Shown here piece after piece: positions 1,035-60,709 of a stretch of DNA of 63,906 bases (the first letter of the stretch is position 1; each line of letters starts with the position of its first letter). This stretch comes from Selaginella moellendorffii (lineage: Eukaryota > Plantae > Lycopodiophyta): the NCBI RefSeq assembly GCF_000143415.4, contig NW_003314274.1, positions 2,524,623 to 2,588,528 of the forward strand, written 5' to 3'. The notes under the pieces were generated by a model that had not been told where the DNA came from, searched no databases, and saw nothing but the letters and a program-made list of their open reading frames with translations. The position numbers and the translations under genes were made by a program.

Positions 1035-1449
1035 TTCTGTAGATATGCCAAATGAGCGAATCTAGACACTTCCTATAAATAGCATATGGGACTGAAATGA
1101 GACCAACACTAAGGACATGATAGCGAGGGTGTTTGGCAGACACGGTAAGCTATCATCAATCGAATATTGAGGGACTAGTCTCAATATCACGGGGGTTCCC
1201 AACACTAGCAAGTGCAAGTCAGCGAATGAGTTTCTCTAACCAGGTCAAGTATGCTTGACAAATAGCATGTAGGAATTCCGTCCTTATGCTCATCTGGTCA
1301 AGTGCACATGCGATGACCAGTTTCTCAACTAGCTTGAGTGGAGACTGTAAAAGGGACCAGCAATACCGACCTCCTGCCGTCGTGGCAGTAAGGAAAGAGT
1401 GCCTGTAAGGACTGGCCAACAAGTATCTTTCGATACCCGAAGTCACATT

Positions 1450-3743
1450 CGCGACAACTTGATAGGATACATCCCGACAATCCTGATCCTTATCAAGTCG
1501 ATATCTATCTTGAGCTTTGCCTATCGCCTTAGTAGCTTTAGATGAACCTTGGTGTAGCTGCTCCGCATAAGTCTCAACGGCTGGGACCAACATCTCGAAC
1601 ATCAGTTTCGGTACAATAATCTGTTGAGACACCCCATGAGCATTCCCTTGCAGCATATCCCATGGAGAACAACCAATAGTGCTGTGAAATGTGTTGTTAT
1701 AATAGATTTCTACTGTATCAAAATGCTCAATCCAGTCCCATTGGTCCGCTGTGACATAGTACCACAGGTAATCCTCAACTTTAGCATTCACATGTTTAGT
1801 CTGCCCATTAGTTTGAGGACGATAAGCCGTACTAAACTTCAATTTGGTACCAAACAGTTGGAACAGTTTGCCCCAAAACTTCCCCGTAAATCTCGAATCT
1901 CTATTCGAGATCATATCTTTAGGAAGACCACAAACCCCCACTATTTTATGGAAAAAGAGCTTTGCTGCTTGTTTCATATTTACTGTTCCCACAGTTGGAA
2001 TGAAATGTGCAATTTTTGACAATCGATCCACAACCACCATCAAAGTATCATAACCATTAGACTTCGGCAAGCAAGTGACAAAATCAAGTGTCACACTCTG
2101 AAATGGCCATACCGGTGCTGGAATGCACTACAACTTTCCAGCATGCTTCTTAGTTCTGCACTTACATTGCTAGCATATAGGGTAGGAATGGACATAGTCC
2201 GCTACATCACCTTCCATACCAGACCAAAAAAATCCCTTTTTCAATGAAGCTAGAGTCTTTTGCTTTCCACCATGTCCCATTGTCAGAACATCATGATGTT
2301 TCCACAGAAACAACTGCTGCAGATCTTTAGATAGAAGATACAATCTTTCTTGCTTATAGAATATAAACCCATCCCAAACTAAGAAGTAAAGCTTTGCATT
2401 GGTTCGACTAGCAACTTTCACCACTTCACTACCAGGGTTCTGCTTCAACAACTCCACATGGTGCAAGATTGCCTTCGCCAATAGATCATTTCCATACAAA
2501 GCCCGAACATCCTCCAACCAGTCTGAACTGATTGCTAATATTGCCTAGAACTGAGCCTAACGACTCAACGCATGCGGAACAATATTATCTTTACTAGGTT
2601 TACGATTTTAGTATCATATCTAGCAAGCTTCTCTTGCCAACAAGCCTACTTCGGCATAAGCTTAGGCTGCATAGCAAAGTAGCTTAATGTGTTACTATTT
2701 ATATAAACCTTGGTGTGTCCACCCAAATAGTGTCTCTAGTTTTCTAGAGTTGACTATAGCAAACATCTTTTTCTCATGCATTGGCCATCTTCTTTGAGTT
2801 TCATCCAATTTCTTGGAATAGAATGCAACAGAACAACCATGTCACCTTAGCGTAACACCAACCACTTTGTCACAATCTTGCTGTAACACAGCACCAATAG
2901 CATAACCAAATGCATCATAATGCACTTCCAAGGGTTTATCAAGATTTGGGATCCTGAGAACAGGAACCATAGTCAAGATCTCCTTCAACCATACAAAAGC
3001 ATGCTAACAATGGAATGCTACTCTTTGTTAACTCAGTCAACGGAAGAGCAATTCTTCCAAAATTGCGGATAAACTTGCGATAGTATCCCGCCAAACTGAG
3101 AAAGGAACGAACATTTTATACAGTGGTTGGAACTTCTTAGGACTTCACCACTTCCACCTTCTTTGGATCCACCTCAATTACGCCACCAGCAACTATATAT
3201 TCGAGAAAGTTTACAATGTCATGCAATTGTTCAAAAGCACATTTACTTTCCTTAGTATACAGTTTGTGTATGCACAACTTTTAAAACACTAGCTCCAAGT
3301 GTTTCAAATGATCCTCCAACGTTTCACTAAAGACTAGAACATCGTCGATATATAGGACAACAAATGTGTCCAAATAATCTCCAAATATTCTATCCATCAT
3401 AGTGCTGAACGTTGCCGGAGCATTGCATAACACAAACAGCATGACAAAGAACTCATAAGATCCATATTGAGTCATAAAGGTTGTCTTCTCCACATCCTGA
3501 TCTGCCACCCATATTTGATGATACCTGGACTGCAAATTAAGTCATATAAAATACTTAGCTTTTAAGAGCTGGTAAGTCATCAATGTGAGGCAAAGGATAA
3601 CTATTCTTGACCATGATCTTGTTGAGTGCCCAATAGTCAATACACATCCTCTTGGTTCCATCGTTTTTCATAACAAAAAGAACCAGTGCTCCATAAGATG
3701 ATTTGCTTGGTTGGATATGACCTTTGTCAAGAAGCTCCCTGAG
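1450..3743 (-). pseudogene. pol: Ty3/Gypsy pol (RT, RNase H, integrase), degenerate, 3' part
   Basis: Motifs: [14 protein letters not shown] (about 3343-3354), integrase zinc finger GHGG, TLDFVTCLP...VVVDRLSKIAHFIP, STAYRPQTNGQT. Many stops and frameshifts; the integrase is truncated after RDVSYQV. Confidence 0.95.
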
Positions 3744-4008
3744 GGGGCTGGGTAGTTTTTGAGCTGAGCTCAAGTCAATGAAAGTCAACGAAAGTCAAAG
3801 GAAGTCAATACAATCCCCTAACTAGCGAAAGTTTAATGGCACTACCTTAGTTCGTCCCGAACCAAGAATTTTTAACATAAAATCTAGGTGTTTAAGGTAT
3901 TCCATAAGCTCATGTAGATTATTGGTTCGACATGAACTAATCTTTTAGTCTACAAAAAAAGAAAATAATATATTAAACAATATAATTTATATTAAAATCA
4001 GAATATAT

Positions 4009-7000: not shown

Positions 7001-7819
7001 CATGTTGTCCTAAGAATCCATCAAACTCACGAGACTTTCGCAGCCATATAGGATCCCATTTTTCCTCAAGTTCAGTAGTCACTGACTCTGTCCGGCTGGT
7101 TCCAGGGAAAGTTGGTGAAACGATGAAGGTACCAGCTGTGCTCCCAAACCCGACCTCGGCAAAGGAGCTGTAGATAGCCATGTTGAGGTCGTAAGCTGAG
7201 CGCACCCAAGCACCCAATGGCTTTGAACCAATCGGCACAAAGGAACTAGAAATCGATGAGGGCCATTCCACGCCATTTCTTGTAACACTTTACTGACTGT
7301 CCGTTCTTGAGCTTGGATAATTGTGTGCCGAACACGATCATTCAAGATGGTGTCAGAATCATGCATGCATAATCCCTCACCACCACTAGCTCCCCCTGCA
7401 CCACCAGCCTGAGGAGCAGTAGGAGTAGCTACCATGCCCCCAGTAGCCTCTGTAGTAGATCCACCTACAACACTACCAATAACGTCCTCAGCTGGTTCAT
7501 CGACCTGGCCACGAACAGCCTCAGCAACTGAAGGCACAACACCCCCACCACCGCCAACATCAGATACAAGTACCCCACCACCAGTACCCGCAGCCTCAGG
7601 AGCACCAGTACCAACAGCCTCAATAACACCAACATCGATTTGAGTGTTCATCTCAACATCCACGTCATTGTTATGCTCATCGTTGCCTCCAGCATGACTA
7701 GCCGAAACTTCATTGGATACTTGAGATGAATCTCCACTCAATCGGCCAAGCCCACAGCGATCAAGGCGGCTGCCTTTTCCTGGAGATCGAGACCATTGAG
7801 GCTGGCCTCGGCACTTCCT
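4009..7819 (-). pseudogene. Multi-exon transposon passenger gene: low-complexity N-terminus, ParB/Srx-like domain, C-terminal beta-class DNA N6A/N4C methyltransferase-like domain
   Basis: FWVIDGNHRWLAF at about 6930-6972. KIDFIFFDLPDG at about 4940-4975 (motif IV position). HPAFPGY*HRSVTAMQILLELFFLPRGIVLDATAGFGSMVQAAKETGRAVFALE at about 4329-4490 (motifs X, I, II). GT-AG introns include 6758-6804 and 6499-6546. Lesions: stops near 4466 and 6341 and an 8-bp duplication at 7202-7217. The first exon is uncertain and may lie near 8561-8630. Confidence 0.8.
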
Positions 7820-9182: not shown

Positions 9183-12100
9183 TATGAGAGAATTCTATTT
9201 GAAATTCGATCAAGAGCCTCCAATTGTTTTCTCTAAGAGTGTTATAGGAGAGAGCTTCCTCTGCAGAAGATTCAAGCTGAAGCCAGGATCAGTTAGTTTG
9301 GAGAATGTATGTCATGATAAGGGTAATCAGATAGAAAAATCCATTCTTCTTGACAGTGGTGTGGGAGAGAATGGGTTTTAATGGGATCTTGATAGATGTA
9401 CAGGTCAAGAGATTCTAGTTACAGGATCTCCGAAGCGAGGAGAGGAGAGCGCATCAGTTTCATAGCCAACTGTGCAAGGAGTGAAGGATGAAGTTGTTAT
9501 TCTCTCCAGTGACGAAAATGAAGAAGATGAGCTTCCCGACATAGCTTCCCAGACAAGTAGGTGTGTTCCTTCTGGACCAGTTTTTGAAGTGGTGGATAAG
9601 GCATTTCGGCAATCTCGATCATTACGGTTGGAATTGAAGGAGTTCCAGTACATGAGAGGTGAGGAGCTTCCTTCTTCCTATAATGGGAATATATTCTTCG
9701 AGTTTCCACCAGCAAGTTCGTCAAGTAGGAAAAGGGGTATGGAGACGCGTCTTGATCCACATAATAGGTGTAGAGTAAAGACGACCCACTTCTCTCATTT
9801 CGATGGATCTGTGTCTATAGTCCATTGTGGTGGACAGCTTCAGTGTGTCGCTGAGAAATGCATTTCTGATCATGGCAAGAATATGTGTTTCTTTGAAGGC
9901 TCAACGACCAATCCCCCTAGGCATGATGAAGCTGCTACAGGATTTAGATGTCGCAAATGTGGGGCAACACTTGTGTGTCAAGCATGTTGCGATGCGAAAA
10001 TGTATTATTTTCTTCCACGGGATGGATGTTTAGGCAGAGCAGCAGTGCATGTTAGATACCATCAACATGCAATCGAGGAAGGAATCTGCCGTGATTCTTT
10101 TCGCAATTTGAAGACTGCTGTTACTACAGAGGCTAGGAAGAAAAGTGCAGCAACTCCAAAGTGTGTTCAACAGTCTATACTAAAGGACTATATGGTGGAC
10201 ATGTTGCTACAATCTGATAGCAAAAAAGAGTTCATGGACAATAGCTTGAAGGACCTACTTCGAAATATAGAACCCATGACAAATTTAAACAGGTATAAAT
10301 TTAACACTTAACTCTACTTTATCACTAATAACACTCTTTTTTTTTGGTAGAATAAAGAACTGGATGCGAGAAGGGCGAGATGGAAAGCTTCAATCTGGAT
10401 TGGATGGGATTTTGGAGCTAAAGAGAAAATGTCCCTATGAGTTTATTCATGGGAGCTTATTCGTTGGCCAAGTGACTTCAAACAATCAACGCCCTTTCAT
10501 CTTTAAGATGTCTACCCTTGGTCCTGCTTCTGGTGTGGACCTTGTACAACGAATGGATATGGATGGAGATGGGGATTTGGCTAATTCCTGGATCCATTTT
10601 GACCATATGGAACGAGTTTCAGGCTGGTCAACGATAGGAGCTCATGTTTATGATCACAAGTAAGTGGCTTTTCATTTTTTAAGGATCCATACCGATTTAC
10701 ATTATAACCATTCTTTTTATAGGTTGCAGTGCAATTTGACTATAGCTATAGCCGAATTCAAGGTTCAAGATTTTCAAGCACAAACCGTCTTTTGGACATG
10801 TATGTCCGAGGTTGTTGAACAGCGAACTGGGAAGAAACCCAACTTCCGAGGTTTCATGGCAGATGCAGCTGGTGCTAACTGGTTGGCTGTACGATAAGTA
10901 TTCAGAGGTGATAAAAGTCAGCCATTACAAGGTAGAGAGAAGAGTTGTGAGTTTCATTGGGCAAAGAGCGTCAATGAACATTGCCGATGCATCAAGTCTA
11001 CCTTCCATCACGAGTTCAAGCAGCTTTGTCGGGAATGGATGGATGCACCAACTAAAGAGGAGCATGAGGCAAAGGCAAATGAAATGCATATATGGTGGCG
11101 TGAAAGAGACAAAGTGCCAATTGAAAACCTTCCACAAATGGAATGTTGGCTTGCATGGTGGGAAGTTCGAATGTTTCAGTGGGGTCATTATACTCTCCAT
11201 GTAAGCTTTCTCTCATTTTCTTTTTTGTCACATTCAAATGTTGCATTTTTTGTAGGATCAACTACTTGATGATATTGCACTTACACCAACAATTAATCTC
11301 TCTGAAAACAAACATTGGAGTTGGAGAGCTTCCGAAGTAGGGAAAGGAAAAGTGTCCCTCTATGAAGCTACACTCTCCGACCTCACTAGATCTCTTGAGC
11401 AGTCATCAAAAGCTTTGGCTGTACAAGAAGCAAGGTTTGCTGGTACAGGTCCAAACTTAGACAGGCTTCAAGAGCGGGTTGGTAGAAGGACAACACCAGC
11501 AGCAGGGTCAATGTCTAAGATGGTGGAGGAAGTTGTTGCTGGAACTCCTATGAAATCAAGTTATGAACCACTTGGGGACATGAGAACAACCCGTATGAAG
11601 CGTTAACAGACATTTGATGGGTCAAACATCACTCCTTCTAGCTCTCACCGTCCAGAGTTTGACTACCATTCTGTTCCACAACACCGGAAAAGAACTAAGG
11701 AACATGGGGTGGAGGAGGTGCCAGTTGTTACACAAGTAAGTCCAGTGCCAGAGGTTGAAAAGGTTATTTCTCGTGAGCCAGTTTCTCGTATCGACTGGGC
11801 AATTCGAAGAGTCAGTGCCAAGAGCAATGCACGTTGCTCTGGAATGATTGGGAGTCGAGGTCAGTGTCTCACTTTTGTGCGCTCAGGTTCAAGTTCTTCA
11901 GCAGTGCCATGTTTCTGGGGCTGCCGAGATCTAGGAGTGAAGGGCCGCCAGTCAAGCTGGATTTACTGTTGTGGAACTGATGTTACTCATACAAGCCGGA
12001 TCCATAGCTCAATTATTTTGAAGCCAGATTCTGTGCCAGAGGAGTGGCCAGTTGAGCGAAGCTGCAATCTTTTGAAAGAAGAGATTGAAAGTCTGGAGAG

Positions 12101-12548
12101 AGCAGGTTTCAAGCTAAAGACTTCCTCAAATGTTGTTGTTAGTACCGCTATGCCACCAATATCAACACTAGACCGGCATACATGACCAGCTAGGAATGGG
12201 AAGGCTGTACAATATAGGTCTTCCATTTCAAAAGGTGCACAAGAGAAGATCAAGCTGGCAAAAGAGCTAAAGTGCACAATCACAAAGACAAACTACATCA
12301 GTGCTATGGCTAAGGAGTTTATTATTGTGACTGAGTCATCAAAGGGTACGAGCTACACTGTTAAAATCTGTGAAAATCCATCATGTACCTATCCAGATTT
12401 TACACAGTGGGAGAATAGGGGAAAGGTATATTTAGCCTGCAAGCACATCTATTACATTTTTATGCAGGAACTAAACCAAGATCCTAAGATCGACCATCAC
12501 ATCCACCAGGCAAGCCTCACAGTTACGGAGCTTGAGAAGTGTTTTTAG
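9183..12548 (+). pseudogene. MULE-like DDE transposase with N-terminal GCM/WRKY-type zinc finger and C-terminal SWIM finger, multi-exon, with premature stops
   Basis: Cys/His cluster HCGGQLQC...CRKCGATL..C..C...HVRYHQH. Catalytic candidates are WIHFDH, FMADAA, CEFHW (10946-10960) and TINLSENKH. SWIM-like PSCTYPDF...ACKHIYY. Introns 10293-10350, 10660-10722 and 11201-11255. Stops at 10895, 11604 and 12183. The start is uncertain. Confidence 0.85.
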
Positions 12549-12745
12549 ATTGCTTTTAGTGTTTGGATCTATATTTATATTTGTATTTTATTGGTCGAAT
12601 TTACTTGGAAATATAGATTAAATCAAAATTTGAAAAATGGAAAGATGTTGGTTCGGGACGAACCAATGTTTTTCTTGTGTTTGAGAAGCCATGAGCTCAA
12701 CTCATGAGCTCATCAGCTCAAAACCTACCCGGGCTCCTCCCTGAG

Positions 12746-14205
12746 TTGCTTCTTGAGTTCAACAATCTCTTTGATATTCAAACGATACGAAGCTTTTGTA
12801 AGTGGTTTAGAACCTGGAATAACCTCAATCCGATGATCAACCTCACGGCTAGGAGGTAGCTCTGGCGGCAAATCCTTTGGGAAGATATCCTAATTCCTTG
12901 CCAACAACTCCAATATCTTCTTTGAGATAGGATCAACCCCATCGCTGATTTGAATTGAGTCACCAACACTCTCAGATTCCATCACTTGAACCCAAAAGGT
13001 CTGACATCCCTTCTAAGCTATTTTTTGAGCGGCCCTTGTAGTCAAGAACTTAGCATCCCAATCCTTTGAGGAGTGCTTTTGCAATTGGAAAGACACATCA
13101 GGATGTCCTTCTAAGTTCAATGTGATACGACTTTGTCTAGCACTATAAATCCCTTTAATATATTTGTTGAAGAAATCCATACCAAACACCATTTGAAAAT
13201 TTGGTATCTTCAACATTTCCAAGTCCACTCTTTCTTTCCACTAGGATATTTTTATTGGAACATCACTCATAAATTTTCTGGCTACTTGCCCACCTTCCGC
13301 AAACTGGAAGTGCATAGGCAACATTTGCTCAACATTCAATCCTAACAACTTAACTATGTCTTTGAATATGACACTGTGCATAGCTCCTATGTCAATCATC
13401 AGTCAGATTCGGTGTCTGTGGACAAAACCTACCAAATACATCAACGGATCAATGTTTGCATTGACTGCGAGAAAAGCTTGAGGAAAGAAACAAAAGTAGC
13501 TCACCTCCTCTTCCTCATAGTTTGCATTGACCAACTTGTCAACCCCTTCAGCTTCACCACCACCATCTTCTGTCATGATATTAACACGAGACCTTGTCTT
13601 ATGCTTGTTGGGATATTCTGAGGACTTATGTCCTAACTCTCCACAATGGAAGCAATGACCCACACTACCTGTTCTGCTAGGAGTAGGTTGTGCAGGTTGC
13701 TACTACTTATACCCACTAGGAGAAGGAACAAAGGGCCTGGACTAGAGGAAGCTGCTAGTGGTTTCCAACCACCACCACCACCTTTGTTAACTATTGCTTG
13801 TGAGCCCCCAGATCAGAACCTACCTTCCACTCTCTGTTTCTGATCACCTTATTTATTTCCAGAATTCTTACTCTTGTCTGAGGTACCAGCATACAGTTAC
13901 TGACATTGTTCCATGAGTGAATGGCTAAAGGCAACTTGTTGTGCTGCCTCCTTACACTTTAGGTATGTCTTTGGCTTAAACTTCAAAATCTCATTGCAAG
14001 AAAGTGAATTTAAACCCTCCAGGAAATAACTCCGAGCATCTTTATCATTCATATTTGCAATCATAATGCGCTTTTGAGCAAAAGCATTAATGTAATACAT
14101 GAGGTCCCCTCGCTACTTTAACTGCCGTAGCTCTACACAAAGTCTCAGACCAAGATCATCTGGCAAGTATTCCTTACAGATACAAGACCGCATCTTGGTC
14201 CAACT
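12746..14205 (-). pseudogene. gag-pol: 5' part of the same Gypsy element: gag (zinc knuckle), protease, start of RT; 5'-truncated
   Basis: CFHCGELGHKSSEYP knuckle, protease LIDIGA near 13385-13402, MVFGMDFF. It continues in frame with 3743 across the DNA transposon. Confidence 0.9.
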
Positions 14206-14207
14206 TC

Positions 14208-15147
14208 TGAGGCTTGCGTAAGGCCACGGTGTTCTGAAATGTTGTCCCAAAGTCCCAGACTATGGAAAGGAAGAGGGTGGTCCTCTGGTGTAGTGACCAA
14301 TGATACGGTCATGTGGTGAGGAAGTCCCAGAGGACAGTGGGACTTAGTGGTCAGGCATATGGGCCTTGCCCCAGTGGTAGTGGTGGCGAACATGGCCATG
14401 GGTAGAAAAGGGACTTGGTGGGGACTGTAAAAGGGATATTGGGGAAGGCTGTTCCCCATGTCTGCAGGCATCTTAAGGATGCTAAGGAGTGGATCTTGGA
14501 TGGTCACTCTTGGACGGATGGTCTAGTCCTTGAGTGACGGGACTGTGATGCAGGTGGTGTTGGACCACCGGTGTGACCAAGGTGAAGGGGCATGGCCTTA
14601 GCGTAATGGGTTAGTATGTCGGTGGTACCTTGGGTGTCGGTTATGGGATTGGACAAATGGAGCACTTGGACTAAGTGCAAGGGTTGAGTGGCATGGATGC
14701 CATTCTTAGGGATAGCAAGCCCTAAGTCCTGAATTGGACTTATAGAGGTTGTGAATGAGACCTTTCCAAGTGGTTGATGGTGTGGTTAAGTGACTAAAGT
14801 AGAATGGAAAAATTAGTCACATACAATTTGGTATCAGAGTTGTTCCTTAGTTCGACTTTTATTGGTGCTGAAGTATATCACCACTAGTGTTGGCATCGGA
14901 AGGTTTTAGGAGTGGGCCTATCCTTGAGGAGTAACAAGTTGGGAAGACATGGCTCTCCACTACAGTTCAAGTGTGAACTCATAGGTGAGGTGGTGGATAG
15001 AAAAGGGCTAATAATGGAATGACTTCAAGATCTTAGGAACAATGTAAGACTTTTCCTTAGTGAGTTGAGGATATGATCCAGATGAGTGTTTGACTCAGCA
15101 AACTAGCTAATGTAGTTGTTTTAAACAACTATAGTTGGGATCATAGG
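14208..15147 (+). mobile_element. Family A copy 1: truncated 5' LTR (ends 14825), PBS and leader
   Basis: The LTR end AGTCACATACA is followed by the tRNA-Met PBS TGGTATCAGAG (14829-14839). The leader matches that of the other A copies. Confidence 0.85.
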
Positions 15148-15214
15148 GCGAAGCGAGCAATAAGCGAGGCTCCAAAAAGGGACCCGAAAGGACCAACATA
15201 TGACACGTGGAAGT

Positions 15215-15900
15215 GTCCGAGATGGAGTCCAAGATGGACCCGAGTTGGAGTCCGAGATGGTGTTCGAAATGGACTGAGATGAAGTCCGAGATGGAGTCCA
15301 AGATGGACCCGAGATGGAGTCCGAGATGGACCCGAGATAGAGTCTGAGATGGATCTGAGATGGAGTCCGAGATGGACCCGAGATGGAGTCCGAGATGGAC
15401 TGAGACGGAGTCCGAGATGGACCGAGATGGAGTTCAAGATGGACCCAAGATGGACCAAGACAGAGCCCGAGATGGAGTCCGAGATGGACCGAGACGGAGT
15501 CCGAGGTGGACCCGAGATGCAGTCTGAGATGGACCGAGATAGAGTCCGAGATGGAGTCCGAGATGGAGTCCGAGATGGTGTCCGAGATGGACCAAGACGG
15601 AGTCCAAGATGGAGTCCGAGATGGACCCGAGATGGAGTCCGAGATGGACCCAAGATGGAGTCCGAGAAGGACCCGAGATGGAGTCCGAGATGGACCCGAG
15701 ATGGACCAAGACAGAGTTTGAGATGGAGTCCGAGATGGAGTCCGAGAAGGACCCGAGATGGAGTCCGAGGTCGAGACCGAGACAGGGACCGAGACCGAGA
15801 CCGAGACCAAGATCAAGATCGGGACCGAGGCCGAGATCGAGGCCGAAGTCGAGACCGAGCCCGAGCCCGAGTCCAAGTCCGAGTCCAAGTCCGAGTTCGT
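15215..15900 (+). repeat. LTR-internal minisatellite (GAGATGGAGTCC, GAGATGGACCC, (GAGACC)n, (GAGTCC)n); also near 27875-28420, 34270-34812, 36560-37125 and 40000-40590
   Basis: Directly visible 10-12 bp and 6 bp periodicity. Confidence 0.95.
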
Positions 15901-17402
15901 GTCTGAGAGGGTGAAAGCCCAAAGCGTTCTTCTCCCAGACCCTGGGGGGTTTGGTGAGCTCCAAAAGTATAGTAGGGGGAGGACTGCAGTGGATCCAGTT
16001 TGGCTAGGAAAGGCCAATTTGGCCCAAGAAGACCAAACCCAGTGTTGGGTGATGAGCTGCCCATTGGGAAATCCAAGACTAGAGTGAACACGGACTGACA
16101 AGTGGGGTAGCTTGGTGAAGTGTTCAAGAGCCGGCTCTAGTTCTCCCAGGAGATCGACTGGCCGATGCTCCTAGTCCAAGTGTGGGTGGCACTACCTACT
16201 TGGATACCTGGCATGGCTCAATGGAACCTTGCTTTAAGCCCATGGCTAGAGCACCCAAAGTCGGGAGGTGGAGAGAGTACCCACGGAGCTCGCGTAGGGC
16301 CACAATGTTCCAAAATGTTGTCCCGAAGTCCTAAATGGGGGAAAGGAGGAGGAGCAATCCTCTAGTGTAGTCACTACGGATACGGTCACATGGTGAGGAA
16401 GTCCCAGAGGACAATAGGACTTAGTGGCCAGGCCTGTGGGCCTTGATCTAGTGGTAGTGTTGGTGAACATGGCCCTGGACGAAAAAGGGACTTGGCAGGA
16501 ACTGACAAAGGGATGTTGGGGAAGGCTATTCTCCATGTCTGTGGGCATCCTAAGGATGCTAAGGAGTGGATCTGGGATGACCACTTGTGGACGGACGGCC
16601 TAGTCTTGGAGAGATGGGATTGTGATGCAAGTGGTATTGGACCACCAGTGCAGCAAAGGTGAATGGGCATGGCTTTAGCGTAATAGGCTGATATATCAGT
16701 GGTACCTTTGGGTGTCAGTCTTGGGACTGGACACGTGGAGCACTTGGACCAAGTGCAAATGTTGAGTGGCATGGATGCCATTCTCGTGACTAGCAAGTCC
16801 CAAGTCCTGAATTGGACTTAAGGAGGTTGTGAATGAGACTCCTCCAAGTGGTCAGAGGTGTGGTTAAGTGACTAAAGTAAAATGGAAAATTTAGTCACTT
16901 ACAACTTGGTATCAGAGCTGTTCCTTAGTCTGACTTTTATTGGTGCTCAAATATATCACCATTGATGTTGGCATTAGAAGGTTCTAGGAGTGGGCCTATC
17001 TGTAAGCTCCTAAGTTTGGACTTCCCGGGAGGTCACCCAACTCAGTACTATTCAAACCCAAGGACGCTTAACCCCAAATATCCCAAGACCCTTAACCGAT
17101 TGGAAAAGAGGGTGCACTCTTGTTCATGGGCCCTTTCCCTCTATATTTGAACCCCTATGGATCGTATCTCGAGTCGTTCCCTTCGGTTGCTTACAATCCA
17201 CCACGCTTCCCTGCAAGTTCACACCCTCGTGAACGGAAGCTGAGAGCCGCAGCTCTCCCGAGAGCCTTGCTCTCTTGACACCCTACCCCTCGGGTCGAGC
17301 TCAGCGGGAGCAAACTGGACCAGCCAGATGTCAATCAATATGTGGTGCGATTCCCCTAAGCCAACCAACAGAGTCGGACCCAAGACCGCTCCGATACCAA
17401 AT

Positions 17403-20400
17403 TGTAAGCCACAAATTTTTCCTTTCCAATTTGCCAGCTTACCTCGTCTATCTGACCAACTCTGCCTTGGCTTGTGCTAAGTTCCCTCGCCAAGGTTCCC
17501 GCCTATGGTACCAGCTCCTACTTGGTCCTACTTGGTTTTAGCTACTCACTGCACGAGCAACGGAGTGTTAGCCATCCATCTACGGATTCCCAAATCTCTC
17601 CCAATCCCCCTCTCCGGTTTAGACTGGACTTAAGGTTCGGCTACACTCCCCGCAGGCACAAGCAGCCAAGCACACCAAGCCTCCAGGTTCCTAACACCCC
17701 TTGGTACCACAAGACTTGATCATGGGACCCTCTAAATCCCAAGTCTTGGGTGCAGGACTTGCTTCGGGACGTCGGGGCGAAACACCGTGGCCTAACGGCC
17801 CGGTATGGGTACCTCTACCCCCCCACTTCCATCCCGAAGGGAAGGCCCAAGCCCCTAGGAAGGGTGAGGACCAATGAGCCACAAGGTACTCAAGTGGGGC
17901 ACCACTCCACATGAGCCGGGAGCACCGCAGTTGGTTTCCCTTTCGGGACTGGGAGCTGCTCTTGAGCACTTCCCTGGGTGGCCCCTCCGGCACCACTCAA
18001 GCCCATGCTCACTCCCACCCAAGGCCCCTCGGCCCCAGTCTCAACCTCAAGTCATTTTGGAAGCACCACTGGAGAGTTCCTTCAAGACTGGTTCCTAGAC
18101 CTCACTATCCCTACTATACTTTTGGAACCCCCTGCAGCCCCCCCCCCCCTGGGAGACGCACACTTTGGGCTTTCACCCCTTGACCCGTATTAGTATTTGG
18201 ACTTAGTCTCTGGCTCGATCTCGGACCCGATTTCGGATCCGACTTCGGATTCGGTCTTAGACTCGATCTCGAACTCGATCTCGGACCCGATCTTGGACTC
18301 GACCTCGGACTCGGTCTCAGACCCGATTTCAGATCTCGGACTCCGCCTTGAACTCGGTCTCGAACTTGGACTCGAACTCGGTCCCCGAGTCGGTCTCAGA
18401 CTCGATTCCGGACTCTATCTCGAACTCGGTCCTAGAGTCGGTCTTGGACTCGATCTTCGACTTGGTCCCATCCGATGAACTCTTTGTCATTTTGGTCATG
18501 CTTTTGGGGTTCCTTTAGCCTACGACACTTCGGCGGGTTGGTTCCTTACAACTCCACCACCCATAGAAGAAGTTCGATTCCCACATCGAACGTCTCGTTT
18601 TATCCTACGACTTGTTGACCATGTCTCCGGGGGCATCCCCCCACTTAGCGGTGTGCCTAAGTTAGCCTCCCCGGCCAAGAGCCCATGACAACGGAATATA
18701 GGTGTCCCTATACCCCTCACCTCACCACGCCCTAGTATGGGGTCGGGACTTGAACCCAGCCTTGCTTTACTAGGGGGTTGGGACTCAAACCCAACCTCCG
18801 TAGAATACATCTACGGATTCGACATCCCCGCGGGGAGTCGGGCGTAGTGCCCTACGCCTGGTCGACCTATCCAACCCATGCTAATTAGCTTACCTTCGGC
18901 GCGCCTTCGGGTCCCAACATATGCCACTTGCTCAACTTTGCAAACTGATATTTTTTAATTGAACTTTGCAATAAGTACATAGAGTTCTGCCTTGCAGAAA
19001 TTCCTCCACTAGATCTCGCGCGTTTGCTAGGTTCTCTTCCGGTTCCCATGTTGCTTCGCAGTGTGGAAATCCTTTCCACTTCACATGGAACTCTCTCACC
19101 TCGCGTCCTTGTCGCTTGCTCTTGCGCGCATTGAGGATGGCCTCAACTTTGTATTCCTCTTCCCCTTGGATAACCTCAGGTAAAGGTCTCACTTGGTCCT
19201 TACGAAGCAGATCCTCAAAGTACGGCTTGAGTAAGTTCACATGGAACACTGGGTGCATCTTCCCCATCTCTCGAGGAAGTCGGAGTCGGTAAGCCACTTT
19301 ACCGATTCGTGCCTCAATCTCGTAAGGCCCCGCGAACCTGCTTAGGGAACTCAAGATCAATTCATTTACAGAAATACATGCATCTTTACCTTTGGGTCAA
19401 CTTTCGGCTGATCCCACTTGGTAGTCTGAGGTTCTTGCTGTTCAGCCACACCTTCTCCCCAGCTTGGAACTTTACATCCCGACGCTTCTGGTTCGCGTAT
19501 TTGGTTTGCCTTTGTTGAGCCCGTTCCAATGAATCCCTCACTAGATTCCAAATGCTGAGTCTTTCCGCCGTGAATGCCTCCACTGCGGGCAACTCTCCAT
19601 GATACTCGGCCACGCCGAGTTCCACAGGACCTTCAATAGCTCGCCCATTGATGACTTCCCATGGACTCACCCCGATACTCGAATGTGGTGAGTTGTTATA
19701 ACACATTTTCGCAAGTCCCAAATGACTTACCCAATTGGTCTGGTCTCCTGAGACATAGCATCGCAAATAATCCTCCAGCTGCCTATTCACCCTTTCCGTT
19801 TGTCCGTCTGTCAAGAAGTGTTAGTGCCAACAACTTGACTTAGTACCCCATACCTGTCTGTGGGTGATAGGCTGTGCTGAATTTCAACTTGGTGCGATAC
19901 TGTTCTAGGAGAGTCCTCCAGAACCTACTGGTGAAGATCTTATCTCGATCTGAGATGAAATCTTCCGATCTTCCCCGCACTCGAACCACTTGTTCGAAGA
20001 ATAGCTTTGCCACACCTTCCGCATCCACCTCTGTTGTAGTGGGTATGAAATGTGCCATTTTCGAAAATCGGTCCACCACCATGAATATCGCATCAAACCC
20101 CTCGCTTGGGGGGAGTCCCGTGATGAAGTCCATCGTAAGATATTTCCACGGACGATCTGGAATTGGGATGCTTTGCAACAAGCCCCCACTAGCCTTAGTC
20201 ACGGCTTTTACCTGCTGACATGTTAGACATGTCTTTACATAGTCTTGGACGTCCTTAGCCATATCTGGCCAATGGTACTTCCACTTGAGTAAGCCCATCG
20301 TCTTGGGCACTCCACCGTGTCCCGTAAGAGGTCCGTCATGACACTCTTCTAAGGCCACCTTCCTTAGTTCCCCTTCTGGAACATACACCCTCGTTTGCTT

Positions 20401-22244
20401 GTAATAGATGACTCCGTTGCGTTTCGCATAGCCCGTTTTCTCTTCCGTTGGCAGCTCACCTCTCTGGTGAGCTTCCCGCGCCTCTAGATTCCTCAGCAAC
20501 ACTTCTTGTCCTAGACCATCGTTCTCATATGCTATCCGCACATCATCCCAGAAGGTTGCTATTGTGCTGGATATTGCCAACCTCAAGCTTGCTTTTCGAC
20601 TTAGCGCATCCGCCACGATGTTGCTCTTCCCAGGCTTGTACAGAATTTCACAATCAAACTCAGCCAAGGCATTGGCCCACCGACCTTGTTTCCCTCTCAG
20701 GTTGGGCTGTGACAAGAAGTGTTTCGTTGCCACATTGTCCGTGTAAACCTTGAAGTGTCTCCCAAGGTAGTGTCGCCACTCCTTGAGTGCCTTGACCACC
20801 GCAAACAATTCCTTCTCGTGGGCAGGCCACTTCCGTTGAGCCTTGTCCAGCTTCTTCGAGAAGAACGCTACCGGATGGTTGTCTTGCTTCAAAACTGCGC
20901 CCAACACAAAGTCCGAAGCATCCGTTTCTACCTCAAAGTCCTTACCAAAGTTTGGTAATGCCAATACGGGAGCTTTCCTCAACTTCCCTTTGAGGTGGAC
21001 GAATGCCGCCTCGCATTCCGCTGTCCACACCATCTTCCCTTTTCCTGTTTGGTCCGTTAAGGGTAGGGCTACTCTCGAATAGTGTCTGATAAACTTTCGA
21101 TAGTGGTTGCATAGCCCCAGGAATGCCCTCAACTCGTGTACATTGGATGGTCGCTCCCATTCCTGGATTGCTTGGACCTTCTCCGGGTCCACCTTGAGCC
21201 CGTCCTGGCCCACCACATGCCCGAGAAACTTTACCTCTTGTTGAGCAAAGTCACATTTGCTCTCTTTAGCATACAGTTTGTGTTCCCTTAGTTTCTCAAA
21301 CACCTTCGCCAAGTGTTCGGCATGCTCCTCTAGCGGCACGCTATAGATCAGGATGTCGTCGATATAGACGACCACGAAGTGATCCAGATAGGGTACAAAG
21401 ATGTGGTTCATTAGTGCCGAAAACGTTGCCGGCGCATTACATAGCCCGAAGGGCATCACCAGAAACTCAAAGCTCCCATACCTCGTTCGACAGGTTGTCT
21501 TCTCGACATCTTCCTCGGCTACCCTGATCTGGTAGTATCCTGACCTTAAGTCAATCCTCGAGAAGTATGTTGCCTTTCCCAACCTATCGAACAGGTCCTC
21601 AATCCTTGGCAAAGGGTACTTGTTCTTCTTTGTATACTTGTTGAGCAATCGGTAGTCTATGCACATGCGCATAGATCCATTTTTCTTTTTCACAAATAAC
21701 ACCGGCGCCCCATACGGCGACTTGCTCAACCTAACATACCCTTTGTCCACCAACTCCTCTAGTTGGCACTTGAGCTCCTTGAGTTCTTTTTCGTTCAAAC
21801 GATAAGGGGGACAAACCACCACCTCAGCACCCTCGATCAGCTCAATCTTATGTTCTATCGGTCGTGTTGGGGGCAGCCCCGCCGGTAGCTCCTCTGGCAT
21901 GGTATCCTGGAATTGGTCCAACACCCGCTGGATCACTAAAGGTACTTCTTCCGTTCCTGTCTTTTTGTCACTCTTCACCGAGAGTAAGCACAAAAAGGCT
22001 GCCTTAGTTCTTTTAGTGAGTTGTCCTCTCGTGGACACCAGGTTTAAGCAGGAATCTTTGGCCTTGCTTTGCCCTACCTTTAGATCTTGGGCCTCCACCC
22101 TAGATCTTCTTCCTTGGGCATTCGCCAGTACCACAAGGTTCCTACCTTGTCCATGCAAGGCTACCACGAACCAATTAAACCAATCCATTCCGAAGATTAC
22201 GTCAAACCCCGCCATGTCCAACACAGTGAAATCCATGTCCACTT
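17403..22244 (-). mobile_element. Family B chromovirus (Ty3/Gypsy), 5'-truncated: 3' LTR 17403-18550, PPT 18551-18566, 3' UTR, pol
   Basis: The LTR reads TGTAAGGAAC...GTGGCTTACA on the minus strand, with PPT ATGGGTGGTGGAGT. The pol carries a chromodomain. gag and the 5' LTR are missing. Confidence 0.93.
18932..22242 (-). CDS. pol: Chromovirus pol (end of protease, RT, RNase H, integrase, chromodomain); continuous after removing introns 19808-19853 and 19338-19389
   Basis: An 800-aa uninterrupted ORF contains YIDD, ETDASD, GHGG...CLTCQ and MDFITGLP. It continues [22 protein letters not shown] and the chromodomain [10 protein letters not shown]...[21 protein letters not shown]. Confidence 0.93.
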
Positions 22245-22483
22245 TCCAAGACCCTTAACTGATTGGAAAAGGGGGTGCACTCTTGTTCATGGGCCCTTTC
22301 CCTCTATATTTGAACCCCTATGGATCGTCTCTCGAGTTGTTCCCTTTGGTTGCTTACAATATCCTTGAAGAGTAGCGTGTCGAGAGTACATGGCTCTCCA
22401 CTCAAGTTCATGCGTGAACTTGGGCGCGATGTGGTGGATAGAAAAGGGCCAGTAAGGGAACAACTTTGGGATCTTGGGAACAG

Positions 22484-23640
22484 TGTAAGGAACCGACTCC
22501 CCGAGATGTCGTAGGCTAAAGGATCCCCGAAAGCTTGACCGAAATGACAAAGAGTTCATCGGATGGAACCAAGTTGAAGATCGAGTCCAAGACCGACTCT
22601 GAGACCGAGCTTGAGATAGAGTCCGGGATCGAGCCGAGGCCGAATCGGAGACCGAGATCGAGACCGAGTTCGAGACCGAGTTCGAGACGGAGTCCGAGAT
22701 CCAAATCGGGTCCGAGACCGAGTCCGAGGTCGAGTCCGAAGTCGAGTCCGAGATCGGGTCCAAGATCGAGTTCGAGATCGAGTCCGAGACCGAATCCAAA
22801 ATCGGGTCCGAGATCGAGTTCGAGATCGATTCTAAGATTAAGTCCACATACTAATACAGCTCAAGGGGTGAAAGCCCAAAGCGTGTGTCTCCCAGGCGGG
22901 GGGGGCTGTAGGGGGTTCCAAAAGTATAGTAGGGATAGTGAGGTCCAGGAACCAGTCTTGAAGGAACTCTCTAGTGGTGCTTCCAAACTGACTTGAGGTT
23001 GAGACTGGGGCCAAGGGGCCTTGGGTGGGAGTGAGCATGGGCTTGAGTGGTGCCGGAGGGGCCACCCAGGGAAGTGCTTAAGAGCAGCTCCCACTCCCGA
23101 AAGGGAAACCGACTGTGGTGCTCCCGGCTCATATGGAGTGGTGCCCCACTTGAGTACCTTGTGGCTCATTGGTCCTCACCCTTCCTAGGGGCTTGGGCCT
23201 TCCCTTCGGGATGGAAGTGGGGGGGTAGAGGTACCCATACCGGGTCGTTAGGCCACGGTGTTTCGCCCCGACGTCCCGAAGCAAGTCCTACACCCAAGGC
23301 TTGGGATTTAGAGGGTCCCATGATCAAGTCTTGTGGTACCAAGGGGTGTTAGGAACCTGGAGGCTTGGTGTGCTTGGCTGCTTGTGCCTGCGGGGAGTGT
23401 AGCCGAACCTTAAGTCCAGTCTAACCCGGGGAGGGGGATTGGGAGAGATTTGGGAATCCGTAGATGGATGGCTAACACTCCGTTGCTCGTGCAGTGAGTA
23501 GCTGAAACCAAGTAGGACCAAGTAGGAGCTGGTACCATAGGTGGGAACCTTGGCGAGGGAACTTAGCACAAGCCAAGGCAGAGTTGGTCGGATAAACGAG
23601 GTAAGCTGGCAAATTGGAAAGGAAAAATTTGTGGCTTACA
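22484..23640 (+). mobile_element. Solo LTR of family B
   Basis: TGTAAGGAAC...GTGGCTTACA with perfect TSD AACAG (22479-22483 and 23641-23645). It is an inverted near-copy of 17403-18550. Confidence 0.95.
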
Positions 23641-26600
23641 AACAGTATAAGGGTTTCCTTAGACAATTGAGGATGTGATCCAGATGAGCATTTGACTTAA
23701 CAAACTGGTTGATCTAGTTGTGGTAAACAACTACAGTTGAGATCACGAGAAAGATGTAGACTCCAAAGCAATAAAGGAGTCACAAGATTACCCTTATATA
23801 GTTGAGGTTGGTACTCTAAAATTTGAGACCAAAATTTATGACCTTGGGAGGTCAAATACAAAAGAGGGCACCAGTCCTTGAAATGGTAGCCGGGGCTACC
23901 TCTAATAAATGCTGGAACAACCCAAGGAGTTGGGGGTGTACTTAAAGATGAGTTGCTATTCTCATCACATGGACAAGTAGTCCTAAGGGGCAAAGGTTAG
24001 CCCCAAGAAATCATCAAGTGTCGGAGTAACACTTGCAAAGATTGTCCTTGTGAGTAGGACAAGAATACAAGAAGTTATATTCCAGCGAGTTGGCACCTCG
24101 AAGACTAAGATCTCGTAGGGTTTTGGATTAGCAAAGTCCAAAATGCTAGATGACTCAAGTGGAGTCAGGAAATGGTCCTAAAGGATTGGTTGAAGCATTT
24201 GGACTAAGGTGTATGGTGCCCCATGAGGTATGGGGAGGATCATAAGATCCAAGTATGAGAACAATAGGTATCTCAATGATGGCAGAATATGCCATACTAA
24301 AGTTGTGGGAAAGATGTTCCCAGAAAAGTAATTTTGGCTCAGAGCTGGGTGCAAACACTATGGTACGGTGCTAACGGATAATTAGCATGAGGAATAACTA
24401 TATTGGTCTTAGCAAAGACCTAAACACTAATAAGTAGTGTCATAAGGATAGGCTTCTAGGGCCAATGGTGTGGAAACACCAAATGTGCCAAAGTGTGATA
24501 CGTTGGGGTCATGTTGGTGGGTTCATAAAAACCCCTTGCCAAGGGAATCCCAATGGAAATGGGAATGGCATAGCCTGAGCTAGAAGGCATGTGGTAGAGT
24601 GTGGTGACCAAAACAATTATGGAAGTGTGGAAGCATCAGCAATGAGTTGTAAGACTTGACAACTATGAGGCAACTAAGCAAAAGGTGCAAAATAATTAGT
24701 TAAACTGGTAAAAGGTAGCTACCCAAGACTACTTAATGGCATAAGGAAGTTAGATATACCCTTATTGGGGATAAATTGCTTATGTTGCGATATAGTAAGT
24801 TAATGTCGTAAAACGGGAATGCTCATTGTCAAAGAGGCTCTCATTTTGGGACATCAAAACACTCTAGAACACCAGAAGGTGGTGTTTGATGTTGCGAGGG
24901 CAATAAATAAAGCCCAAGGAACTAAGTACTTAGTGAATGATGCATAGAAGTTGCTATCCAAATGTCCAAGGTTGCAGAGACGGGAGAAGACTGTTTACCC
25001 GAATTGGACAAAGCCAAAAATGGAATTTTGGCAAGGCTAGTGATGGGCATGTAAGGGCCTATAAGTAACAACATTAATCCTGGTGTGTGGGATTATAAGG
25101 TGAGCATACCTAGATTGAGGAACCACTCCCTAGGCTGTCGGGTCGGTTCATCCCTAAGAATTCTTACTAAGGCATGATAGAAAGTGCAAAGCTATCCTTC
25201 TAGTCTGGAGGAGAATGACCGAAGGAAAGGTGTGAAGCCAAAAGCAAGTAGTAAGGGGATAGAATCAAACCATAGGAATCGAAGGGCATAACCAAAGGTG
25301 GTTATGCCAATTGGGAGTGGAGAATCAAGAGGGGGCTCGAGGGTGTTGTTGCTAGCAACCGTGATGTCATGGAGAGTCTAAAATATGGAATTGTCTATGT
25401 TAGATTATATGGCAACTAAAAAGCTCGTGAAAAGGGAGGCCTTAGCAAGCTAAGGGACAGAGTTCCTTCAAAGTTCCCAAAGACGATTCTAGATAGCTTA
25501 GTACCTAGAAAGCCGAGTGTAAATGGTTCCTAAAGCGTGCGAAATTAGAGTGGCGTAGCAGAAGTGTGGTCTTGAAGCTGGCCATGAGGCGAGGCTATCA
25601 AGGTTGGAGAAGTGGTTCCCGAGTGTTCAAAGAGAGGGCTTTGAACAAAAGTCGATGGTTAGGACTTTCACGCTTATGCATGAACCATGTTACGGTGGCC
25701 AGATGACTTGCTAAGTGAGATTGGCAAGTCAGGGGGACAAATCCCCTAGTTGAAGGTGTTAACTTCAAAAGGGGTGGCCCATAGGGCCGAGCATGGAGGA
25801 GTCCATGCATGAACACAGACTTGTCAAGTGAGAGGACTTGGCAATGCGAAGGAACTAGGTTCCTAAGCTGTGATCTATAACGTGCTTTAAGTATAAGTTG
25901 GTACACTGGCATGGGGAGTCACATCAGGCATCTAAGGTGATGCTGTCCATAGATGCATATACGGAGGTTGGGTTTGAGTCCCAACCCTCTAGTGCTTGGG
26001 TTCGAGTCCCAAATCACTAGGGCGTGGTGATGGTTTGGAATATGAGGACGCTCATATTTCGGTGGTCATGGACTCTTAGTGAGGAGACTAGCTTGGGCAC
26101 ACTACCAAGCGAGGGATGCCTCGGAGTCATGATGCATGGTTAGATTGCTTAGAGTGAAAGTTCAACATATCTAACTTGAACACTTTGGTGCAAAGGGCAC
26201 CAAGGACGTTGTGAATGAGATGGGGACACCCAAGTTTCAGTTGCTATAGATGCTTGGCTGGAAGGGCTAGATTGGGCGCACCGCCAAGTGTGGGGGATGC
26301 CTTCGGGGTCATAGTCAACAACTTAGAAGGGTCTAAAAGACCTAGTTCCTATTGATAGACCTAGTAAGGGGTCAAGATGAGATCACTAGGTGATCCTTTG
26401 GCTAAACAAGGGGGTTAAGGAATATGATTCCTAGTTCAAAGTGTTGATTTGAACTATTGATAAAAGTGTGGTTTGGTCAAAGTGACCAAGTGGAAAGAAC
26501 ACTTAAGGGAAATAAACTATGTCAATGCTATGGCATAGTAAGTCCAAGGAAAGTAGTCTCTATAAAAGATCCAAAGGAGGGTCTCAAAAAGTCGGGCCGT

Positions 26601-49399: not shown

Positions 49400-51383
49400 G
49401 AATGAGCTTTTTACACTCTGCAGGAAGGAATCAAACTATTCAACCAGAAGCTTGCAAGGGTATTGATTTCATTGTAAAAGCCAAGAAAGTGGAGAAAATT
49501 CCTGAAAAGGTTGTCAAGTTCCTCCTGAGTACCATAGGTCTCACAAAGGCCTGATCGGGGATTATCTGGGTGAAAAAGAGGAGTTTGGGCTATTACAGAT
49601 GTCTAAAGCTGAGACATTGATGATGGAAAGGATCTTCCTGAAGAGTTTATGGGAGGATTATATGACCGTATAGTGAACAAAGAAAGTAAAATGAAAGTGG
49701 ATAATGTTATTCCGGTCACAAAACCCAGCTGGGGAGGACAATAATTTCCTGCTGGGATTGACAACATCATGAACATAGTTATCCAAAAGCCTAAAGAAGA
49801 GAAGCTGTTTAGGTCCAGTGAAGACGCGATTTGTTATATGCAAGATCAACTCAAAGAAAAGCTGCGAAACCAGAGTAAGCTTCATAGTTTCCTTATTGTT
49901 TTGATAGCATTGCCTTCATTTTCTACTAGATCTGCATACTATGCTGCGACAGACGTGGAAATTGTTAAGCCAAGTTTCATGGGGACCCATGCTTGCGGGG
50001 CCTAGTGTCCCACAAGGGTTGCGACGAGGTTGTGACTTCACCGCGCCTGGAAGGGTTCAGGCATGCGACACATATCACTGCAGTGATGTGCATGCAAATA
50101 CAGCGGGATGCTTTTGTGACTTCTCTTGCAAAGTTTACATCGCTACATTCTCCTGTGGATGTCAAGCAGAAAAACGTGAATGCTATCAAGGTAAATTTAG
50201 TGTGATGACATATGGTGCTTACCCTGACCAAATATTGCAAATGAATAAGGAAATTATTTGCAGCACGCATGGGAGCATGTACTTACATGCGTTTCACGAT
50301 TGATCATCTTTATCTCATTGGCGGCTCTTCATGATGCTACTTTCTTTTCAAACGATCTAGAAAAGACTAAGCTATCAACTGCTCCAAAAAGAAAAGGAAG
50401 ATTGTGTTTGCTGCTCTAGCTGCACGTTGAGGACCATATGACAGTACTGGTGGCAGGCAGAGCCCAGTACCTGGTGCAGTCACTGCAGAGCAAATGAGTA
50501 ATCTCTTTTCAAATCTCATTTTGCTCGGTCAAATTGATTCGAACGAAGCTAACAAAATTTTTACTCGAAGTCAAGCCTTAAGTAGTGAAGGAAATGTGGA
50601 CTTTGTAAAAGCATTGTGCAAAGTGTCCATGGATGAACTGCGATCTCCTACTGATCCACAAGTGTTCAGTCTCACCAAATTTTTGGAAATCTCATAAGTG
50701 ATTTGATTGTGACGTATTCACTCGCTTGTTGTATAGGCACTTCGATCAGGCTGGTCTGGAGGAGGATGTGGAATACATTGTCTGACTATTTTGTTACTGT
50801 CGGGTGTTCAAGCAATTTCTCAGTTGCTATGTATACCATGGACTCTCTCTGGCAGTTAGCGGATCGTGACGAGCTTGCAAATTACAACTTCCAGAGTCAG
50901 TTTATGTGGCCTTTTGTCATCATCATGCAGAGAAGTGCCTCTGTTGAAATACAAGAATTTATCATCCGTTGTGTCTCTCAAATGGTGTGCAACGTGAGAT
51001 CTGGCTTGAAAATTACGTTTATAGTAACAAAGTTTTCAGAGTCAAGGTATTGTCTGATAGTGGCGGTGACAGATAGAGATAGTGCCATTGTCCATCTTGT
51101 GTTTGAAACGGGAGAAGGTTGTCAGAGATACTTTCAACACATTACTGAAACCGAGAGCACAATATTCAGAGCACAATATTATATATGCCTTCTTGTGAAC
51201 AAGTTTAATGACGATATCAGCCTCAACGCTCTCACATTTCTGCGTTTTTGCGCCTTAAAGCTTGGTGAAGGAGAGCTTCGCTCTGTTTGGTTGGTTGGCC
51301 AGGAAGTGTATGAGAAAAGTAGTCTTTATTTGGTGACCAAAGATGCATTCTACACTGAAATTCCAAAGGAGCTTCCATACTGA
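49400..51383 (+). pseudogene. BIG-type Sec7 ARF guanine-nucleotide exchange factor fragments with internal deletions
   Basis: KGIDFI...KFLLSTIGL, FVTSLAKFTSLHSP.DVKQKNVNAIK, IFTRSQAL...DFVKALCKVSMDELRSPTDPQVFSLTK, ELANYNFQ...IIRCVSQMV, ISLNALTFLRFCALKLGEG. Confidence 0.88.
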
Positions 51384-60278: not shown

Positions 60279-60709
60279 NNNNNNNNNNNNNNNNNNNNNN
60301 NNNNNNNNNNNNNNNNNNNNNNNNNNNNNNNNNNNNNNNNNNNNNNNNNNNNNNNNNNNNNNNNNNNNNNNNNNNNNNNNNNNNNNNNNNNNNNNNNNNN
60401 NNNNNNNNNNNNNNNNNNNNNNNNNNNNNNNNNNNNNNNNNNNNNNNNNNNNNNNNNNNNNNNNNNNNNNNNNNNNNNNNNNNNNNNNNNNNNNNNNNNN
60501 NNNNNNNNNNNNNNNNNNNNNNNNNNNNNNNNNNNNNNNNNNNNNNNNNNNNNNNNNNNNNNNNNNNNNNNNNNNNNNNNNNNNNNNNNNNNNNNNNNNN
60601 NNNNNNNNNNNNNNNNNNNNNNNNNNNNNNNNNNNNNNNNNNNNNNNNNNNNNNNNNNNNNNNNNNNNNNNNNNNNNNNNNNNNNNNNNNNNNNNNNNNN
60701 NNNNNNNNN
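60279..60709. other. Assembly gap (N run)
   Basis: Run of N. Confidence 1.

Follow-up and report, generated by a model that had tools for sequence, protein, structure and literature searches.

Two introns inside the integrase of a Selaginella chromovirus, with a possible split between its genomic RNA and its mRNA

Retrotransposition is classically demonstrated by the disappearance of introns. The subject here is a copy of a Ty3/gypsy chromovirus with two introns inside its integrase, found in a window of 63,906 nt from Selaginella moellendorffii (NCBI RefSeq assembly GCF_000143415.4, contig NW_003314274.1, positions 2,524,623 to 2,588,528). The window is the whole stretch of DNA analysed, and all coordinates below refer to it. 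Published systems are described as far as the available portions of the cited papers describe them. By analogy, the closest precedent is Ogre, a legume Ty3/gypsy element of the non-chromovirus Tat clade, in which one intron of ~274 bp lies between the open reading frames (ORFs) for Gag-protease and for reverse transcriptase (RT), RNase H (RH) and integrase (PMC6317226, PMC4408406). The likeness lies in an intron that is present in genomic copies, in the splicing of a subset of transcripts and in a downstream polyprotein that needs splicing, while the present locus differs in having two introns of host size within one enzyme, with only the integrase dependent on splicing. The element would work like Ogre but is not Ogre, and membership of the Ogre clade was rejected, the frame being open from the end of protease to RT and a chromodomain being present.

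Two pools of RNA, as proposed here, are also described for EVD, other Ty1/copia elements and BARE1. In EVD the spliced RNA terminates early and is translated and not copied (PMC5580714), and in BARE1 the translated RNA lacks the R region and is not copied (PMC3735527). In EVD and other Ty1/copia elements, however, splicing removes Pol and leaves a message for Gag only, with the unspliced RNA encoding everything, whereas here the arrangement would be reversed, the unspliced RNA lacking a working integrase. Introns are contained in Ginger DNA transposons as well. These share a Gypsy-type integrase with the present element, and GingerRoot is present in Selaginella (PMC6839031), but they have neither RT nor long terminal repeats (LTRs), so that introns pose no problem there. 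A Ginger-type DNA transposon was rejected for this locus, since RT is present and the inverted pair of repeats consists of LTRs and not of terminal inverted repeats. Penelope-like elements are retroelements that retain introns through retrotransposition, but they are not LTR elements, have a GIY-YIG endonuclease and form no particle with integrase (PMC8557442). Among plant LTR elements, a 2025 review credits, in its available portion, only Ogre and EVADE with functional introns (PMC12786077). No report of introns within a chromovirus integrase, or in the family SM1-Galahad to which the element is assigned below, was found in the literature searched, with two large supplements of PMC6317226 and Repbase outside that search; the available portions of PMC2864245, PMC6839031 and PMC5718144 contain nothing further on such introns. 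Intron retention by retroelements is already known; two introns within a chromovirus integrase would, judging from the literature searched, be new.

The locus is a truncated copy of a high-copy chromovirus family whose integrase contains two short, apparently spliceosomal introns; the unspliced RNA is probably what is copied, and full integrase probably comes only from spliced mRNA. A family of hundreds of copies would in that case retain two integrase introns although their loss would give a fully autonomous element, and would offer a natural, marked system for how an LTR element separates genome RNA from mRNA, for integrase supplied in trans and for how new introns arise. It also carries a warning, namely that ORF-based annotation will label such families defective.

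Two introns within the integrase

The interrupted pol is made up of the following parts, with a related pol from the same window as a comparison.

19854..22245, minus strand: the stretch of exon 1 present here; the latter half of protease, then RT and RNase H, the H2C2 finger and the first two catalytic residues, both Asp; no gag
19808..19853, minus strand: intron 1; 46 bp, GT..AG, phase 1, in the active-site loop; a variant one base longer exists
19390..19807, minus strand: exon 2, 418 nt in length; the remainder of the core with the catalytic Glu, and the first third of SH3; contains an ATG-started 318-nt ORF of the unspliced DNA
19338..19389, minus strand: intron 2; 52 bp, GT..AG, phase 2, inside the SH3 (GPY/F) domain
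18932..19337, minus strand: coding part of exon 3; rest of SH3 and chromodomain
1387..3761, minus strand: decayed related Gypsy pol, for comparison; no insert at site 1

The positions, lengths and GT..AG ends of both inserts match the original prediction exactly. Both are 3n+1 long, so a retained insert leads to a stop within a few codons, and the three pieces around them stay open over 799, 138 and at least 119 aa. Removal of the inserts does rejoin the integrase frame, as had been claimed: homolog P0003 aligns over both sites with no gap on its own side, and exon 2 implies a distance from D to F of 140 aa against a homolog median of 141, measurable in 47 of 65 homologs. In 56 and 49 of these 65 homologs the junction motifs read through without a break, the remainder having missed the pattern; the calling of ORFs disfavours introns. 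At 18970 this copy carries an additional base, which is missing from ~98% of the DNA depth, and the family-majority stop codon of exon 3 lies at 18957-18955.

Pfam matches follow the order RVP_2, RVT_1, RT_RNaseH, Integrase_H2C2 and rve, which is the protease-RT-RH-integrase (PR-RT-RH-IN) order of a Ty3/gypsy chromovirus, and exon 3 matches profiles of the integrase C-terminus (SH3_Tf2-1, E 2e-15; Chromo, E 3e-16). Alignment of exon 1 with the Ty3 and foamy-virus integrases places its end at the HPQT/HPQS loop. The spacing from the second catalytic Asp to the Glu is 35 residues only with intron 1 removed, and the Asp, Asp and Glu so arranged are the catalytic triad of D,D(35)E integrases. The Glu is the fourth codon of exon 2, with intron 1 four codons upstream of it; as it is found only in that exon, unspliced RNA encodes an integrase stub without the third catalytic residue. 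It had been claimed that the unspliced product loses the chromodomain, which holds, but the effect was understated, the catalytic Glu being lost too. The SH3 domain is in turn split by intron 2, because exon 3 begins at position 24 of the 64-position SH3 profile.

Splice signals and composition agree with this anatomy. A CTAAC motif stands near the 3' end of intron 1, while intron 2 of this copy has no such branch-site-like motif; the inserts have a GC content of 0.44 and 0.35 against ~0.50 in the exons, and are richer in T. Their sizes resemble those of other introns in the window, as had been noted, in that GT..AG spans of 48, 57, 48 and 47-51 bp, predicted introns read by eye, occur in a neighbouring gene. 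The introns have no notable RNA fold (z -0.34 and +1.90), no Rfam family over them and no match elsewhere in the window. Both inserts are confirmed as real introns, with features that appear to be of U2 type (GT..AG, a branch-site-like motif, a U-rich interior), and chance is excluded as an explanation because contigs of two likely-RNA sequencing runs, X15 and X16, skip exactly these bases. A tandem duplication may have given rise to intron 1, although the hint is weak: the 47 nt upstream of it (19808-19900 with the intron) start with GTAT and end in GACAG as the intron does, 11 of the last 19 bases are alike (p 0.015) and a local alignment gives p 0.039, one of five uncorrected tests. Intron 2 has no such similarity to its flanking sequence.

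The Gypsy pol at 1387..3761 was said to have no insert at site 1, and it is indeed contiguous there (matches end at 1810 and resume at 1806, in one frame); it is, however, a different, decayed family (~40% amino-acid identity) and ends short of site 2. Protein searches returned no close relative or annotated spliced product, the best identities being 50%, 46% and 48%, the last among the 150 matches listed. A metagenome scan gave 15 loci, all distant and 10 of them short partial matches; loci L001, L002 and L003 are contiguous at site 1 and L001, L003 and L008 at site 2, while L012 is broken, and viral contigs gave no match. The short integrase-like fragments (L004-L007, L009-L011 and L013-L015) adjoin an inverted self-copy in several metagenome contigs.

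Family assignment, genomic copies and RNA

SM1-Galahad of Selaginella moellendorffii comprises hundreds of copies, ~95% alike, with LTRs of 1076/1146 bp, thus over 1 kb, a poly-G tract of 11-25 bases and a tRNA-Met primer site (Novikov et al. 2012, PMC3350952). Its polyprotein of 1295 aa ends in the core integrase without a chromodomain and is accompanied by a pair of additional ORFs, 316 and 309 bp long, the last of which has the chromodomain; the 2012 consensus, built from many copies, shows the same break-up into three ORFs (PMC3350952). At the present locus the LTR is 1148 bp long with a G12 tract, and a main ORF without chromodomain is likewise followed by two short ORFs, the last with the chromodomain, which measure 318 nt and 309 nt behind intron 1 (both counted from their ATG, the latter with the extra base at 18970 skipped). 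A Met-type site at 17399-17388 stands behind the LTR of this copy, but continues into Cassandra sequence. The element therefore most likely belongs to SM1-Galahad, an assignment that rests on anatomy and on the published description, not on the consensus sequence. The sister family SM2-Galahad has one continuous ORF of 1577 aa, with an intact young copy, LTRs 99.7% alike and a tRNA-Met primer site too (PMC3350952), compared with ~1557 aa for the present element after splicing. PMC3350952 treats the short ORFs as extra ORFs, and neither 'intron' nor 'splic' occurs in its main text. The two introns explain these orphan ORFs, including the chromodomain ORF left standing alone in 2012.

Eight of 24 sequencing runs were compared, namely X1, X2 and X4 (DNA; 15,954 contigs over 1.5 kb, 10,465 over 0.73 kb and 36 contigs, respectively), X15, X16 and X17 (likely RNA, their type being a computed guess) and X23 and X24 (raw RNA). 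The inserts belong to the family at large, as DNA contigs of X1 and X4 span them. Contigs of X4 run through each intron, and so do X1 contigs only 86-88% alike, so that intron-bearing contigs range from 99% to 86% identity and the introns predate much of the family's spread. Precise intron-less copies were looked for, and the exact skips have no support in the 10,465 contigs of X2 or the 36 of X4, where all 8 joints were inspected; X2 shows 6 unrelated deletion joints at a depth of 8-32. That the introns were gained in one copy which then multiplied at the DNA level, through segmental duplication or capture by a DNA transposon, might be suggested by the rearranged state of this copy within a nest of repeats. 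The hundreds of dispersed copies ~95% similar (PMC3350952), the solo LTR with its perfect target duplication and the wide range of identity among intron-bearing contigs make this highly improbable.

Splicing is seen in the likely-RNA runs, as predicted. X15 yields a 1,083-nt contig whose three abutting pieces skip both inserts exactly, and in X16, a different sample from the same study, both joints appear exactly within a contig of 2,500 nt, with CT..AC ends on the plus strand. A 614-nt contig of X17, from another study, retains intron 1, and its pieces extend into intron 2, so that spliced and unspliced forms both occur. One raw RNA read of X23/X24 lies within intron 2. The possibility that the inserts are unique to this copy and have no spliced form is excluded by their family-wide occurrence together with the spliced contigs.

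A different account would have spliced RNA occasionally reverse-transcribed, with the intron-less copies dropped by assemblers and the X15 and X16 contigs derived from such a processed copy. Contigs do drop rare variants, the run type is guessed and the transcribed form has letters missing from the DNA runs (19415, 19416, 19571); yet X17 has two of those rare letters and still retains intron 1, so this sub-lineage has the intron. The DNA runs yield 10,465-15,954 contigs and X15-X17 only 1-2, a contrast that transcriptomes would be expected to give; X2 preserves deletions of 76-189 bp that occur in a single contig, and an autonomous intron-less copy should have out-spread the others, whereas the 2012 consensus is intron-bearing. 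A processed copy is accordingly a decidedly improbable source of these contigs.

Proposed division between genomic RNA and mRNA

The preferred reading assigns different tasks to the two RNAs. Unspliced RNA would encode Gag, protease, RT, RNase H and an integrase stub without the catalytic Glu; it could form particles and be reverse-transcribed, but its product could not integrate. From the doubly spliced mRNA the complete polyprotein would be made, including core, SH3 and chromodomain, and it would be co-assembled in trans. The spliced RNA would be kept out of reverse transcription, and new copies would thus retain both introns, with the by-product that splicing rations integrase relative to Gag in a single-ORF element. 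The protein products of either RNA are deduced from the reading frames, and the exclusion of spliced RNA from reverse transcription from the fact that intron-less copies were not found. The original proposal that integrase is supplied only from spliced mRNA gains support from the family-wide inserts, the spliced contigs and the lack of an intron-less joint among the contigs inspected.

How the spliced RNA might be excluded can be considered by analogy. Selective packaging or export is a real possibility, if short of an even chance. Polyadenylation immediately after the chromodomain, short of the polypurine tract and LTR, on the pattern of EVD, is slightly less probable, and a different start site, as in BARE1, is rather unlikely. 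An early poly(A) site near the majority stop is possible, on a weak hint: one spliced contig terminates at 18999 and the other, judged by its length, at ~19009, ~45 nt upstream of that stop and 450 nt before the LTR, and the stop overlaps an AATTAAA motif with a U-rich stretch after it (18950-19010), but a single study supplied both contigs, and RNA ends cannot be read from contigs. A bolder version is doubtful and is put forward tentatively, namely that the genomic RNA is unable to encode a working integrase, that integration is spliceosome-dependent, that splicing is coupled to poly(A) addition behind the chromodomain so that mRNA is never copied, and that the same particles mobilise Cassandra. 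Such an element would be the mirror image of the strategy of EVD and copia elements.

The spliced protein was probably under selection, since the variants downstream of intron 1 are mostly silent. Of the 34 listed variants in exons 2-3, 20 are silent where transitions would lead one to expect 34% (p 0.0026), and exon 1 is much the same (11 of 18, p 0.013); at intermediate frequency 6 of 8 variants are silent. Between this copy and the spliced X16 contig, exon 2 shows 19 differences, all of them listed, with 12 silent changes and no stops. These figures bear on the view that the introns are tolerated lesions, the family being non-autonomous and integrated in trans by the intact SM2-Galahad, with splicing incidental. 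In favour of it, SM2-Galahad has an uninterrupted ORF, a young copy that is intact and the tRNA-Met primer of SM1, for which no intact copy is described (PMC3350952), and expression is very low in the raw RNA runs. Usable splice sites in both inserts nevertheless restore the frame to the codon, silent changes dominate exons 2-3 as they do exon 1, those at intermediate frequency included, and exon 2 is open in the spliced contig, all of which makes tolerated lesions improbable.

Several observations weigh against the division proposed above. The evidence for splicing consists of two contigs from one study whose run type is guessed, and no raw junction read is among those listed (5 reads in X23 and 1 in X24, of 9.2 million records each). 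X16 and X17 have letters in common at 19415/19416 that are absent from X2 and X4, and because these are missing from the DNA runs, few loci may be transcribed; the X17 contig also has a nonsense change in exon 2. The 2012 study, in its available portion, reports no intact SM1-Galahad copy (PMC3350952). The selection test covers 40 of 186 and 40 of 67 variants, those listed, whose sites are not independent, and is indicative. In the comparison that includes X1 the exact skip is not among 15 of 23 joints, those listed, with the other 8 outside the listing, and assembled contigs drop rare variants, so that rare intron-less copies could escape. The summed DNA depth of X1 over intron 1 is 484k against ~0.7-1.4 million, and that of X2 is 8k at 19830-19854, though one exon bin falls to 11k; short contigs fail to align at intron 1 because this copy departs from the majority sequence at four listed positions there and because the longer variant exists.

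Composite structure of this copy and its surroundings

The pol described above is flanked by parts of the same family and by pieces of Cassandra-type elements.

18551..18931, minus strand: 3' untranslated region (UTR) ending in the polypurine tract
17403..18550, minus strand: 3' LTR; 1148 bp, TG..CA, 12-base poly-G, internal 12-mer repeats
22484..23640, plus strand: solo LTR of this family; identity with the 3' LTR 94%, perfect 5-bp target duplication, poly-G of 8
22246..22358, minus strand: opening 113 bp of a Cassandra-type LTR, abutting mid-protease; the composite insertion begins here on its left
17196..17402, minus strand: Cassandra internal region with the tRNA-Met primer site, immediately following the long LTR
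17001..17195, minus strand: Cassandra-type 3' LTR with a 5S-rRNA-like segment at 17004-17091; right end of the composite

This copy begins in mid-protease behind the Cassandra LTR piece, with gag, the first half of protease and the 5' LTR missing; it is a truncated family member and not an autonomous element. The protease motif at the Cassandra junction may or may not be native. The chromovirus hallmarks of a TG..CA LTR, a polypurine tract and, at the solo LTR, a 5-bp target duplication are present, and the solo LTR with its duplication shows that the family spread by integration. The inverted repeats at 17402-18148 and 22895-23641 were considered as transposon ends and rejected, being LTRs in opposite orientation.

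From 22358 to 17001 the composite runs through the Cassandra LTR piece, pol, 3' UTR, long LTR and the Cassandra primer site, interior and 3' LTR, and its flanks agree at 4 of 5 bases. The long LTR occupies the exact place of the Cassandra 5' LTR, as seen by comparison with a whole Cassandra copy at 32539-33132. The structure would fit template exchange at the primer site during reverse transcription, in which case the composite itself would be a copy of unspliced RNA; an insertion at the primer-site border followed by a deletion would fit too. The Cassandra-type TRIM (a miniature retrotransposon with terminal repeats) of Selaginella has LTRs of 195 bp, a non-coding interior of 207 bp, a tRNA-Met site and a 5-bp target duplication; its 5S-like segment scores 31.6 bits against RF00001 (E 1.3e-4), under the gathering score of 38. 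Cassandra is not named for Selaginella moellendorffii in the available portions of the literature covered. The junction of a Cassandra copy with the chromovirus exactly at the border of LTR and primer site is a lead to the mobiliser of Cassandra, for which no autonomous partner is indicated in the available portion of Kojima 2024 (PMC10886601). The chromovirus and Cassandra agree at both ends of the LTR and where the polypurine tract ends, but the Cassandra partner is not pinned to this chromovirus, because another LTR family in the window has similar ends.

A nest of related LTRs extends over 14000-41700, with long arrays of 11-12-mer repeats, similar ends and copies near 15043-16903, 26877, 33273 and 38126. 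The Cassandra and solo LTR insertions lie ~120 bp apart at most, within one nested LTR family of the window. Further away, at ~4280-7800 on the minus strand, is a multi-exon gene with short introns and a few in-frame stops. An earlier exon has an FFDLPDG motif and the last exon a weak N6_N4_Mtase match (E 0.0009, 19.7 bits, under the cut-off of 26.7), and the gene may encode an amino-methyltransferase of bacterial type or belong to a transposon. A decayed, partial copy of a BIG-type Sec7 gene (annotated SELMODRAFT_410926) lies at 49450-51380, with frameshifts against the full-length paralogue; one Sec7 exon nearby matches a Selaginella moellendorffii protein at 100% identity. Very AT-rich simple-repeat tracts occupy 57000-58000 and 60200-60750, with a GC content of 0.06 and 0.13.
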